A stretch of DNA of 64,000 nucleotides from Eledone cirrhosa (taxonomy: Eukaryota): positions 195,548,001-195,612,000 of the forward strand of contig OZ024741.1 in assembly GCA_964016885.1 (NCBI GenBank), given 5' to 3'. Position numbers and translations under genes: made by a program. This document shows, piece after piece, positions 10 through 21,580 of the stretch (position 1 is its first letter; every line of letters starts with the position of its first letter). Below the pieces are notes generated by a model. The model was given only the letters and a program-made list of their open reading frames with translations. It made no database searches and had not been told where the DNA came from.

Positions 10-81
10 TATATATATATATATATATATATATATATAGATAGATAGATAGATAGATAGATAGATAGATATATAGATAGA
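10..81. repeat. (TA)n then (GATA)n microsatellite flanking the 3' end of Tx1 copy 1
   Basis: Direct reading: ta repeat to ~39, then gata repeat to 81. Confidence 0.95.
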
Positions 82-296
82 TTTCTTTATTTACCATAAA
101 GGCATAAAAAGAAGGGACAAATACAAAGGGGGAGTTTACATATAATCGAGTAAAAAGGGTGTAACATGAAAATAATCGAAAATAACCTCAAAAGGGAGGG
201 GACGTGATGGGGGTTGCACACACCCCCGAAAAAGTGTGCAATCCTTTTCCCGGGGAGCACATGGAGAAGGTGCTCCCCTCTCCTTTACTTCTTTAC

Positions 297-3200
297 CTAC
301 AGGATGGTATACAGAGAAGGCCCATTTACACGAGCCATTCTCGCCACTATCACCCACCTTTCATAAAACTGCCTGTGGCCAAGCACCTCTCTCTCCATTC
401 TTATCCTTCTTCCGAAGTGATATCGGAAGAAGTAGACCAGACTATGGCCAGAGAGGAAGTTGCCTGACCTCAGACCTTTCAATCGTGTCCACCAAACAAC
501 CTCTTTCAACATGGCTATTACGCACAGAAAAACCGCCTTTGCTTCCTTTATGAAGAGGGGAGGCGGTTTGATTGTCATCACGGACTCGGCGGTCAATTTA
601 ATCGGCGCCACCCGCGACAGCAGTCGTTCGGCGTAGCCCCACAGATCAGCCACGCCCGGACATTGCACCAATGCGTGCGCAACGGTTTCTTCGTGACGCA
701 CGCATCTAGGGCAAATCTTTTTTGAGGGATCCCTGCCCGGGCGCCCGTGTCTGTAGAGCCTCTCTCGAACGGGTAGAGCCCCCCAGTAGCACTGCCAGGC
801 CAGTGACTTCTGGAAGTTGTCCATTGGTCCTGGGCCGAAAGTCCTACCGAACAGGCTGGCCAGTTCGTCCTTTTCCATGTCCAGCGACTCTCCAAGGGTG
901 TCATCGCCCCTGCTAGCCACCAGCCCTCTATAGAATGATGAGGTGGATTCTCCACCGATGGCCCGGCCCGCTTGCCAGAGAGCCCTGAGCGCCTGGGCAC
1001 ACTCAGTGTGCCAGTCTCCCAGTTTTCCGGATCTTTGCTTGACCCAGGACTGTAGCTCGGTGAGCGAGACGAGTCTCGGAAAGGCTCGTTTCACGAACGG
1101 AGCCCACACCGGTTGACCAGTGAGGAATACCTGTAGGTGCCGTAGCCTTAATGCGTGCCTACGCATCATCAACCACGGCATCCCCAGCCCTCCTTTCGAA
1201 GGTTGTTGGCAGCAGATGGATCTTCTCACCATAGGAGGACGCTTCTTCCAAAGAAATTGGAAGAGCATGCGTTCCATGGTGGTGAGTGTTTCCTTAGGGC
1301 AAGGCACGACAGTCAGGCGGTAGTAAGTGACGGACGCTATGTAAATGTTCGCCACCTCCGCCCGGCCTTTTAGGGACAGCTTACACTTGGCCCATTTCTG
1401 GGTTAGTGCAAACACCTTGTTCGTAACCTCGTTCCAGTTCTTTTCCACCTGGAGGTCCGGTCCAAACCAGACCCCAAGCAACTTTACCGGGCCCTCCGTC
1501 CAGTGTCCGACGACACCGTCAGGAGGCATCGGTCTGCCTCTCCACGTTCCGAGTTGCAGCCCGATGGATTTTTCCCGGTTCAGTTTCGCTCCTGACAACC
1601 TTTCGTACTCCTCCAGTAAGGTACCGATCGCCTCGATCTCCGAGTCGGTTGATACCATTACTGTTACGTCATCGGCGTAGGCCGACACCGCTTTGCTCAA
1701 TCCTGGTTCCAGGGGGATACCCTGCAACAACTCCAACTTCCTCAGTAAAGGCTCGAGAGTCAATACGTACAGAAGGGAGGAGAGAGGGCACCCCTGTCGA
1801 ATGGATCGTGTGATTTCGAACGGCTTCGAAAGGTAGCCGTTCACCTTGATCCTAGAACAGATGTGGTTGCTGTGTAGGGCAGTGATCCAGCCTCTGAAAA
1901 CAGGACCGAACCCAGCCGCCGCTAGCACCGCATCCAGGTAACCATGGTCGACCCTATCGAAGGCCTTAGACTGATCTAAGTTGATCAGGGCCCCACCGAA
2001 GCCGGGTTTGTTGCCAACCCTCTCTATGATGTATCGCATGAGGTGGAGGTTATCGTGAATGGACCTGGATGGGATAGCACATGTCTGCGCATCTCCCACC
2101 AGGCCACCCACGACAAGCGCCAACCTCTTTGCTAACACCTTGGCCAAAATCTTTAACTCTGTGTTTAGCAGGGTTATGGGCCGAAAATTATTTATATTAT
2201 CCCCCTTGTTCTCGTCCTTCCTCACCAGCGTGACTACGCCCTTGGCTACAGAACAAGGAATTCTCCCGTTCTGCTGCCAATTGCAGTAGACCGCTTCGAG
2301 GAGTTCGGAGAAGAAGACCGGCATTGCTAAATAAAGTTCGTAAGGTATACCATCGAGACCTGGAGATTTGCGTCTGCTGCATTGGCTCAGCGCATCTCCG
2401 ATCTCATCAGCCGAGATTGGTCCCTCGCAGGACTCTGCCTCTTCGTTCGAGAGACGCGGCAGGCCGTCGAGGTATGGACCAAAATCCACGCCCCCGCCCG
2501 GACCCTCGCCTCCCCCGAACAATCGGGCAAAGTGTCTTTGAAAGGCCTCGCACATCTGCTTAGGCTCCCGGATCACCCGTCCATCTTCGTCTTGCAACGA
2601 CCGGATGGTGGATCGATTTCCACTCTTAGCTTCTGTCACGCGGGCCCATCCAACGGCTTTGGCCCCCTCATTACCTAGAGCACGTATTTTACTTCGAATG
2701 ACGCAGCCTTCGTGCTTTGCATCGAAAAACTGGTTCAAGGCCGTCCTCGATGCCAGCACTCTGGCCACATCTTCGCTCTTGATTGCCTCTTCTAATTTAC
2801 CTGTTAATTCTTTCTCGTTTCTATTCCTATCGGCAGCTAACATCTTGCTATAACTTATTGATTCTGTTCTAATCTCTCTTTTGAGAGATGCCCACCATCG
2901 GTTGTTGACGATTGCACCCGTCAACCTCTCCTTAACTAATCTGCTAATCCGGTTTCTGTAAGTCTCTTTTGCCGGTAAAGACAAATTAAGTTTCCAGTAA
3001 CCGGGACCCTGTCTATGTGTTTTCTCGAGATTGACCACGCAGGTCACTAATTTGTGATCCGTGTAGCCAACCGTGCGCATTTCTGGACAGCTTAATATGT
3101 CCCTATCCTTACTTCTAACTAAGAATCTATCTAAGTACGATCTAGATTGACCACTGTGGTTTCTCCAAGTCCAGGTAGGCACAGTTGGAAAATCTAGTCG

Positions 3201-19375: not shown

Positions 19376-21253
19376 TTACTTTTTCGTTTCCTGGAGATCG
19401 GGTTGTTCAATCTCCATTTGGGTGCTGGATGGGGTGTTGGGTGGGGTGGGGAAACCTTTCAACAGGACGCGGTTGATGGGTTTGTGGCAGGGGTTGCCCA
19501 CGTCCTGTGAAAATTTAATTTTCAGGTCTTTATAGGTTTCCATAGAAACCCTTATAAGTTTAAGGTGTGGAGACGATTCTGCCTTGACGAAAGTTTTGCC
19601 CTCCGTCTCCACCTTGGGGTTTTGGGAGATGACCTCCATCAAACTCTTGTTGTTTGTGTTGATGTATGCGTATTGTTGTTTGTGTTTTTGTTGTATTGTT
19701 TTAGTTTGTTGTTCATCTGGGAGTTTTCTTTTTATGGTGGGTGCTTGTGTTTGGGGTGGTGTTGGTGCTGGTTTTGCTGATAGGGGGGTGTTTGACTGTG
19801 GTGTTGTTTGTGTTGTTGTTTGTGTCTGTGGTTGTGTGTTGGTGTTGGTGATTGGAGTTTTGGGGGTTTTGTGGTGTCTCTTTTTTTGTTTTTTGGATTT
19901 CCGCGGTTCTCCCTCTTCTTCACTTAAAGAAGGAGAAGCAGCTTCATCCGTCGATGAATAATCATCGTCAGGTGTGTGGGGTAAGGGTATGTTGTGTGGT
20001 GGTGGTGGTGTTTCGGTATGTGTGTTTGTGGTAGTGTTTGATGGAGTGGGATGGAGTGGGGATGTGTTCTTCAGGGGTGTTGTCTCTGTTTTTTCTGTTG
20101 TTGTTGGTTGAGTGTCTGTTTGTTTTGGTGTGGTTGCTCGTTTCGTCTGTCGTTGTACTTGTGGTTGTGGTGGTGGTTGTTTTGGTGTTGGTGTTGGTAA
20201 TAGCGTTTTTTTTATGATGTTGCTGTTGTGTGTTTGTGGACAAGAGGCTTTTAGGTGAGATGTGCTACCACAGCGAAAGCAGTGAAATTTTCTTCCTTCT
20301 ACCGAAATGTTTATTTTGTTGTTATTATCAATAACGACTCTTTCGGGTATTTTGGAGATTCTCTCCGGTTTCATTTGCAACAGAATCTCCAAATCGGTGC
20401 CCGCCCACCTTTGTCGAATGGATTTTCGTATCGAAAGTATTACGTCTGTCTCTGGCTCTACGAAGCCAGCCAAGATCCACCAGATGTTAATGCTTGGAGG
20501 TATGTTTTTTATTTTTATTTTTTGTGTCCTTTTCCCCATGTGTGTAGGGAAAAAGGTGTATGCTTTTGACACTATTGGTGTCACGGAGTTTTTTGGGGCC
20601 AGTGTCTCGCTTTTAAACAGTACGGAAACACTTCCGTACTGTTTTCCTCGCTGGAGAAAATCGACATTTCCTAGAATCTCCTTGAAAGAATCTTCTATAT
20701 CTGACTGATTAACAAATGTCGGTTTTCTTGACGAATTTGACACAGTCCTAAAAGTGACTGATCGGCGGTTTGTGTCTTCCTTTATTTCAAGGGGTGAGTT
20801 AATTCTAAACCCACCTCGTTCTTCGAAAGTTACAAATTTTCTCCCTTGCTGGAGCATATCTCTTGCGTTGGAGATATCAAGATTTATAAAATCTTGTTTC
20901 TTGTTGACTGTGTCAGCAAAAGACATTTTCTTTTTTTGTGTGATGTTGTTGTTAATAATGATGTTATCGTTGTTGGAAATCTTATGTGTAGATGTATCTG
21001 TAGAGTTGTTGATGTCTTTTTCATGTGTATGTATGTCAATGGGTTTTTTTGCCGTGTTTTCCCGTGTGTTATTGTCATTTTTCTCCGCTTCGGCGGTAGA
21101 AATTGTAACATTTTCAAATGTTGATATATTTTTTTCTTTTGTGACAGTATCTATGGCAACGTCCATAGCAGCAGAAGCAGATATAACGTTAATATCTGCC
21201 TCTTTCTCTCTCTTTTCACTATTAACGTTCTCCAGCGTTCTAGTGTTGCTCAA
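19376..21253 (-). CDS. Tx1 copy 5 ORF1 (625 aa), zinc-knuckle protein
   Basis: CFRCGSTSHLKASC knuckle; open frame. The start is TTG where copy 3 has ATG (aaaacATGaataacac vs aaaacTTGagcaacac). Confidence 0.8.
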   Translation of the reverse strand: MSNTRTLENVNSEKREKEADINVISASAAMDVAIDTVTKEKNISTFENVTISTAEAEKNDNNTRENTAKKPIDIHTHEKDINNSTDTSTHKISNNDNIIINNNITQKKKMSFADTVNKKQDFINLDISNARDMLQQGRKFVTFEERGGFRINSPLEIKEDTNRRSVTFRTVSNSSRKPTFVNQSDIEDSFKEILGNVDFLQRGKQYGSVSVLFKSETLAPKNSVTPIVSKAYTFFPTHMGKRTQKIKIKNIPPSINIWWILAGFVEPETDVILSIRKSIRQRWAGTDLEILLQMKPERISKIPERVVIDNNNKINISVEGRKFHCFRCGSTSHLKASCPQTHNSNIIKKTLLPTPTPKQPPPQPQVQRQTKRATTPKQTDTQPTTTEKTETTPLKNTSPLHPTPSNTTTNTHTETPPPPHNIPLPHTPDDDYSSTDEAASPSLSEEEGEPRKSKKQKKRHHKTPKTPITNTNTQPQTQTTTQTTPQSNTPLSAKPAPTPPQTQAPTIKRKLPDEQQTKTIQQKHKQQYAYINTNNKSLMEVISQNPKVETEGKTFVKAESSPHLKLIRVSMETYKDLKIKFSQDVGNPCHKPINRVLLKGFPTPPNTPSSTQMEIEQPDLQETKK

Positions 21254-21468
21254 GTTTTTTTTACTTTGTAAAATTTGATATTTTAAGACAAACTTTTAAA
21301 TAAAATTTTCGCCCCTACAGGGGCGAAAAATGGGATTACCACCCAGCTGACAATTCAGCTTGGGGGTTAATCTACAAAGTGTTGTATTTTTTTCAAACAA
21401 TTAGATCGGTTTTTTGCATAGAAATTAACAAAAAACTTACCGGCGATATTCCACACGCTAGACAGAAA

Positions 21469-21580
21469 GATAAATAGATAGATAGATAGATAGATAGATA
21501 GATAGATAGATAGATAGATAGATAGATAGATAGATAGATAGATAGATAGATAGATAGATAGATAGATAGATAGATAGATA
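21469..21580. repeat. Long (GATA)n tract upstream of Tx1 copy 5
   Basis: Direct reading, ~110 bp. Confidence 0.95.

Follow-up and report, generated by a model that had tools for sequence, protein, structure and literature searches.

A same-strand array of LINEs and (TCTA)n

The 64,000-nt stretch of Eledone cirrhosa DNA analysed in this work (contig OZ024741.1, positions 195,548,001 to 195,612,000; hereafter the window) carries five long interspersed nuclear elements (LINEs) of one family, which are separated and flanked by runs of the tetranucleotide repeat (TCTA)n, or (GATA)n on the opposite strand. All of them lie on the minus strand and are numbered here by position. The array begins at 39-81 with (TCTA)n, which lies downstream of copy 1 and merges into (AT)n at 10-38. 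Copy 1 (82-5902), a full-length member of subfamily A in which both open reading frames (ORFs) are open, is followed by a (TCTA)8.8 spacer (5906-5939) and by copy 2 (5940-7163), a 5′-truncated B element of 1.2 kb that breaks directly into the repeat. A (TCTA)12 spacer with TA interruptions (7164-7210) leads to copy 3 (7211-12638), a C element whose 5′ end is present, and (TCTA)9 (12639-12677) leads to copy 4 (12678-15602), again of subfamily B and 5′-truncated (2.9 kb), with the end AATAAAGAAATATATC. Beyond (TCTA)17 (15603-15670) lies copy 5 (15671-21473), a young C element of full length, including a TCT-rich 5′ leader, and upstream of it about 27 further units of (TCTA)n (21474-21580).

Identity is 98.4% between copies 2 and 4, which differ in their truncation points, and 94.7% between copies 3 and 5 over 4.5 kb, most of their length; copy 1 is 75-81% alike to the others. 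The sense 3′ ends of all five copies read AATAAAGAAAT, followed by CTATC or, in copy 4, by ATATC, an ending that is common to many family members and not a repeat error; none of the five carries poly(A). Coordinates and pairwise identities thus confirm what a first-pass annotation of this DNA had described: five same-strand elements of three subfamilies with (GATA)n between them, a common 3′ register without poly(A) and two truncated copies that break into the repeat at different points. Its statement that only (GATA)n lies between and outside the elements holds for the nature of spacers and flanks, but the spacer between copies 1 and 2 contains three additional bases (CCC on the sense strand), and the outer runs are short, giving way to (AT)n after about 43 nt on the left and to an RTE-type fragment after about 107 nt on the right. 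The 5′ end of copy 1 was found again at three genomic loci (L243-L245).

In copy 1, ORF2 (297-3734, minus strand) encodes an apurinic/apyrimidinic endonuclease-like (APE) domain with intact motifs, a reverse transcriptase (RT) with YADD and a C-terminal zf-RVT-like finger. Over 297-3731, it matches PF03372 (1.7e-8) and PF00078 (5.7e-27), as well as PF13966 at a value just under the cut-off of that profile (8.2e-6), and its top match among solved structures is LINE-1 ORF2p (E 5e-51, 176.6 bits). The translation of ORF1 (3768-5669, minus strand; 633 amino acids) has a long P/T/Q/K-rich tail and one CCHC knuckle of the form C-x2-C-x4-H-x4-C, which is found in copies 1 and 5. ORF1 of copy 1 gave no Pfam match of any kind, and the corresponding part of copy 5 ORF1 scored 0.92 to Atlas CCHC clusters. 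Copy 5 has an open ORF1 (19376-21295) and a frameshift within the endonuclease part of ORF2; in copy 3, frameshifts and stops interrupt ORF2, and about 0.3 kb is deleted from within ORF1. Folding of the 3′ untranslated region yielded z values of -1.1, -2.3 and -0.8, with no consistent strength.

The fragment bordering the array on the right (21581-22455, plus strand) is a 5′-truncated RT sequence with RVT_1 and DUF6451 matches, presumably RTE-like, which begins exactly at the GATA run and ends in TAGAATAGAA, followed by (AT)n. Family copies at L027 and L142 have the reverse of the fragment's 3′ end as their downstream flank, and its tail may act as a seed of target sites.

Target sites and arrays across the genome

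The 3.0-Gb assembly was scanned for 3′ ends with exact patterns of 23-28 nt, one per subfamily. The matches (C 3,666; A 1,408; B 5,972) add up to 11,046 ends, which is a lower bound, and the reversed patterns used as controls gave 0 matches. By a rough count that misses runs preceded by A, the genome contains 32,557 (TCTA) runs of at least three units, a number of the same order as that of the element ends. Many genomic copies resemble copy 5, and the best C matches are about 99% alike to it, as befits a young family. Downstream of L015, L038, L099 and L125 (also L141 and L217) lie the 5′ end and the beginning of ORF1 of a fourth subfamily, with TCTA directly before them in every case, and a further 3′-end variant with AATAAAAGAAAC lies before L126, L130 and L225. 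At least four subfamilies coexist.

The fixed 3′ end of the element is AAAGAAATC or AAAGAAAYATATC, and the target-site duplication begins immediately after it. Among the 3,666 C ends, 1,390 continue ATCTATCTATC, 2,586 continue AYMTATCTAT and 133 read ATC|AAT; a B pattern two letters shorter than the one behind the B count above gave 5,003 matches in combination with AYMTATCTAT, a string that is partly the element's own end. We then classified the 3′ flanks of 140 position-ordered ends (80 C, taken from the first 100 C places, 30 A and 30 B), 128 of which terminate in ATC or A(T/C/G)ATATC. At least two exact TATC units follow in 70 of the 140, and a further 38 have a single unit or a variant, the rest being AAT (7), (TC)n (5), (TA)n (3) and other sequences (17, without any TTC run among them). 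All AAT flanks belong to subfamily C (7/80 versus 0/60 for A and B together). Within the AAT class, 28/30 continue AATA and 29/30 are at least 97.9% alike to copy 5. Insertions at AATAT sites were seen inside satellite arrays (L081-L084, L087-L089 and L058-L060), where some have been multiplied together with the satellite; near C1:430.29 Mb, the satellite carrying family copies has a period of about 2.4-2.5 kb. Junctions of the type ATC-TATC-AATAT are absent among the C ends (0), and ATCAAA ends number four genome-wide over all subfamilies (control matches: 1). Neither a repeat unit nor poly(A) is thus added, which argues that the repeat is target DNA. Priming by a poly(A) tail at AATAT sites was also considered and gained no support, there being only these four ATCAAA ends.

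The 5′ ends were located by BLAST against references from the window and the loci. We scored 84 of the 140 sampled copies; the remaining ends lay beyond the fetched DNA (27/30 A) or were dropped. Visual inspection led to the exclusion of 13 loci judged to be mis-chained or rearranged (L032, L045, L052, L086, L129, L133, L142, L168, L180, L194, L198, L207 and L208), 12 of them from the 140-copy sample. Of the 69 truncated copies, 30 had a perfect TCTA 8-mer inside an 18-nt interval at the break, as did 21 of the 33 young ones (at least 95% alike to the reference) from this position-ordered sample, as compared with 22/4000 local controls (0.55%) and 12/9420 positions in the rest of the window (0.13%). 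Among young copies without the adjoining tail of another element, the 8-mer was found in 13/24; a separate top-hit set gave 17/29 overall and, again, 13/24 without an adjoining element tail. When both sets are taken together, 16 of 48 solo young truncated copies have at least six TCTA units within the 40 nt that precede the break, and these runs exceed the typical duplication, supporting a pre-existing repeat. Full-length copies bring a short TCT-rich 5′ leader of their own (L307 and L308, two copies in AATAT satellite), so that the GATA on their 5′ side counts only in part as independent evidence.

At all 28 sites with unique markers, the duplication starts directly after the element end. Its length is 8-22 nt, with a median of 13 (27 sites with at most 25 nt), values inside repeats being upper bounds. 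The consensus at these 27 sites is Y|W-A-T-M-T-W (position -1, C19/T8; 0, T16/A11; +1, A27; +2, T27; +3, C15/A11/T1; +4, T25). Collectively, the TCTA at 5′ breaks, the duplications and the lack of an added unit uphold the earlier proposal that the repeat is a pre-existing target and not a 3′ tail. The label "tetranucleotide-specific" fared less well: a preference for (TCTA)n is evident, but only 70/140 ends lie at two or more exact TATC units, pointing to a preference for a short motif that recurs every 4 nt in (TCTA)n. The specificity amounts to a preference for TATCT that is strong but relaxed, and the motif is for the most part encountered in (GATA)n. True microsatellites account for about half of the sites, and single units or variants for a quarter; AATAT is used in addition by the youngest C lineage.

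The arrangement in the window recurs elsewhere. On another chromosome (C1:1-104 Mb), the 224 listed ends form 39 pairs of neighbours no more than 6.5 kb apart, whereas 2000 random placements gave 3.1 such pairs on average and never more than 12. All 39 pairs are on the same strand and 27 are of mixed subfamily; 65 of the 224 ends fall in 26 clusters of 2-6, several of which were read directly and resemble the window array. These counts support the suggestion, made from the window sequence, that the family builds tandem arrays. Of 30 young full-length C copies (from a search with 75 matches), 22 have at least five TCTA units just upstream, and in 18 the end of another element, varying in subfamily and length, lies 6-224 nt upstream, as expected of separate insertions. 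A fixed 5′ tag acquired by full-length copies from an upstream element was also considered and rejected, with upstream neighbours ranging from 41 nt to more than 1.4 kb.

Relatives and neighbouring elements

The family has the APE-type layout of the L1 group, in which ORF2 (APE, RT and C-terminal zinc finger) stands behind a separate ORF1, and it displays the 5′ truncation (69 of the 84 scored copies) and variable target-site duplications (27 sites) of this group. Among named proteins, the closest to it is one of Argonauta hians, at 67% across the RT region, compared with 74% for an unnamed NCBI protein and about 50% for many unnamed ENA proteins. The homologue searches returned no protein named Tx1 among their matches, and the search with the endonuclease part matched a single protein. 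In a quick maximum-likelihood tree of 50 RT regions, built without an RTE outgroup or named Tx1 or L1 rows, the window copies, the Argonauta protein and protein P0001 form one clade (Shimodaira-Hasegawa-like approximate likelihood ratio test, SH-aLRT, 99), which is sister to 12 unnamed proteins (100) and then to turtle and fish proteins (91); taken by itself, this grouping would make an octopod the probable host. ORF2 of the family scores 456 bits against a Keno-like relative inserted in U2 small nuclear RNA (snRNA) sequence (P0107, the ORF of L258), as opposed to 177 bits against human L1 ORF2p, and this far higher score favours Tx1. A CCHC knuckle in ORF1, in place of an ORF1 of the vertebrate L1 type, is a Tx1 feature, and it is present in copies 1 and 5. 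Membership in the Tx1 clade is likely on the basis of these sequence comparisons, the naming being indirect.

Around residues 178-200 of copy 1 ORF2, the lineage and its unnamed sister clade share the motif S-Y-L/I-D-R (with one T-Y-L-D-R and one A-Y-L-D-R in the alignment), where human L1 has S-K-I-D-H, and the preceding endonuclease loop differs in length among relatives. The motif and its loop represent a candidate specificity region.

Among more distant relatives, two APE-RT elements on metagenome contigs (L258:5815-5977 and L253:4675-4885) have an A-run followed by U2 snRNA at their end and are Keno-like. The 55 metagenome loci are mostly 22-34% alike to the family, with a few fragments at 39-54%, and no GATA run was found among the 32 loci inspected; these loci are thus uninformative about the target in close kin. 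L284 and L285, two divergent APE-RT elements, have a short sequence in common, starting with GTATGTATTTGGA, near both contig ends; it had no Rfam match, and the two possibly represent a site-specific element with a multicopy target. Contigs of four other organisms cover B- and C-type sequence, with some pieces at least 99% alike and the repeat junctions lying outside the compared pieces. Parts of the stretch are contained in public sequencing runs (18 rows, 13 studies), with no RNA run among those listed.

Other mobile-element remains lie elsewhere in the window. They include an ORF fragment at 23513-24001 (minus strand), which by its motif we take to be Helitron Rep/helicase-like, a frame of 483 amino acids at 27972-29423 (minus strand), presumably a Penelope-like RT with a GIY-YIG endonuclease, and additional LINE fragments at 48738-49214 (plus strand) and 59771-60775 (minus strand), which we assume to be RTE-like. 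A tandem duplication of 430 bp, 97% alike, occupies 30863-31817.

Insertion mechanism and significance

We consider it probable that the array arose when a single (TCTA)n microsatellite was entered on five separate occasions by one L1/Tx1-type LINE family, likely through an APE preference for Y|WATMTW. The target of APE-type LINEs is largely set by the endonuclease (PMC4494074), and we infer from sequence that the APE domain of this family is sequence-specific. According to the proposed mechanism, it would nick the bottom strand at approximately 5′-WAKATW^R-3′ (about ATA^G or ATT^R), with (TCTA)n offering a Y|WATMTW site every four bases. Target-primed reverse transcription would then begin at the fixed end …AAAGAAAUC or …AYAUAUC, assisted by 3-4 nt of pairing between the RNA end and the TATC target, and a second nick about 13 nt away would duplicate about three repeat units. 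Each insertion would thereby leave both of its sides as targets and, since the repeat is strand-asymmetric, later arrivals of any subfamily would enter in the same orientation, giving rise to arrays.

Several observations weigh against this interpretation or limit its reach. Older copies (less than 95% alike) show the TCTA 8-mer in only 9/36 cases, which may reflect decay or a weaker preference, and 12 of the 33 young truncated copies also lack it at their 5′ break; no duplication was found in 11 of 62 pooled young truncated copies. The 5′-junction sample is mostly of subfamily C, the 5′ end having been seen in only three A copies. Furthermore, the motif is partly circular, as 4 of the 27 sites were AAT-selected and other positions lean on repeat sites, the placement of the nick is imprecise where target and element both read ATC, and the count of 133 AAT junctions overstates the number of insertion events, because AATAT copies have been multiplied in satellites.

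The main alternative is that the GATA bias stems from priming, with a weakly selective endonuclease (AT-rich, Y|W) and an RNA end, …AUAUC or read-through UCUA repeats, that pairs best with nicked (TAGA)n. The ATC that target and element have in common at most repeat junctions (-3/-2/-1 being A/T/C in 16/15/19 of 27) would fit this idea, as would the 17 of 140 sampled ends at other sites. However, AATAT sites and others such as L040 and L204 offer no such pairing and yet show W-A-T-M-T downstream of the junction, and no TATC unit is copied on at AATAT sites. Priming leaves these sites unexplained, and we regard this alternative as unlikely. Priming aside, the element could synthesize (TCTA)n as its own 3′ tail, in the manner of RTE-, CR1- or L2-type LINEs, with arrays resulting from insertion into earlier tails. 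TAT does follow nearly all 3′ ends, and the 5′ neighbour is the end of another element in 9 of 33 young truncated copies; yet TCTA lies at the 5′ break of 13/24 solo truncated copies, and the duplications start directly after the fixed end, with zero ATC-TATC-AATAT junctions, making such a tail highly improbable.

Very unlikely, too, is near-random insertion combined with better survival of copies in microsatellites and array growth by unequal crossing-over. Duplication-like cases do exist, namely a near-identical B triplet with matching spacers (L231-L233) and the satellite-amplified copies (L081-L084). However, the TCTA bias is strongest in the youngest copies (21/33 versus 9/36), 27 of the 39 neighbour pairs mix subfamilies, and (AT)n, although far commoner in the window, received only 3 of 140 ends. 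A misassembly across the repeat as the origin of the five-copy array seems scarcely credible: none of the contigs examined spans the stretch, but the five copies all differ in sequence or truncation point, and 26 clusters of varied make-up occur in 104 Mb of another chromosome.

Separate insertion into a pre-existing repeat places the family beside known repeat-seeking LINEs. Kibi and Koshi, Tx1-clade elements of teleost fish, target (TC)n and (TTC)n, respectively (PMC4494074, PMC3812793). The window family resembles them as an APE-RT LINE of the L1/Tx1 group residing within a pyrimidine-rich microsatellite strand; it differs in its TATC/ATCT target, with (TC)n at only 5/140 ends, its AATAT side target and relaxed preference, its probable octopod host and its more than 11,000 ends. 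As described in PMC4494074, several crocodilian Tx1 families (Tx1-1_Crp, Tx1-2_AMi and others) prefer (TTCC)n/(TTTC)n and thus also exhibit a tetranucleotide preference rather than strict specificity; compared by description, they differ in repeat unit and phylum. The same source regards a family as target-specific when a single sequence type occupies over 20% of its flanks, and the values for the window family lie above this level at both the 3′ ends (70/140) and the truncated 5′ ends (30/69).

The U2 snRNA-specific Tx1 element Keno is similar in its ORF2, as reflected by the 456-bit score to the U2-inserted relative, whereas Keno-like loci have an A-rich tail, a single-gene target and a separate branch in the RT tree. 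Insertion into U2 snRNA is not the pattern of the window family, whose flanks are TATC, AATAT or AT-rich. Dong belongs to the R4 clade, unlike the window family. Microsatellite targets listed for non-LTR (long terminal repeat) elements in the accessible part of PMC3812793 are ACAY, AC, TC, TTC and TAA. The family shares this mode of targeting with Waldo (ACAY), Mino (AC) and Dong (TAA), one of these units being a tetranucleotide; Waldo and Mino belong to the R1 clade, judging from the title of the paper cited, and GATA is not among the targets listed there for elements of this type. Togen, in turn, targets (TG)n (PMC4640811). In Octopus vulgaris, 13 recently active L1-Tx1 families with 421 insertions have been described (PMC13282606); these are likewise active in an octopod and may, to go by their description, include relatives of the window family, but the main text of that paper mentions neither "target" nor "GATA".

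The literature searched, to which Repbase and Dfam did not belong, yielded no GATA-targeting LINE, and (GATA)n is apparently a new target for a known kind of repeat-seeking LINE. The mechanism itself is not new, microsatellite-targeting Tx1 elements, tetranucleotide ones included, being already known. Any novelty, as entertained in the first-pass annotation, would attach to GATA and not to a tetranucleotide target as such, for which crocodilian Tx1 families (PMC4494074) and Waldo (PMC3812793) are precedents. It is possible, though in our judgement somewhat doubtful, that the family represents an octopod-wide Tx1 lineage and the first GATA-targeting LINE, with a tail-less fixed end, that regenerates its target, takes up a large share of the (GATA)n tracts and is in the course of changing its specificity, the youngest C lineage alone having acquired AATAT sites. 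If so, a comparison of subfamily endonucleases would map the residues that determine APE specificity.

The mechanism of microsatellite targeting has been called not well understood (PMC3812793). (GATA)n would join the short list of microsatellites targeted by LINEs, and the thousands of young insertions left by at least four subfamilies allow the target motif to be deduced from genome sequence. The determinants of APE specificity could be tested directly by comparing endonucleases that are closely related but differ in their side targets. Moreover, GATA tracts act as hotspots of insertion in this genome, with consequences for its assembly and for the use of GATA microsatellite markers.

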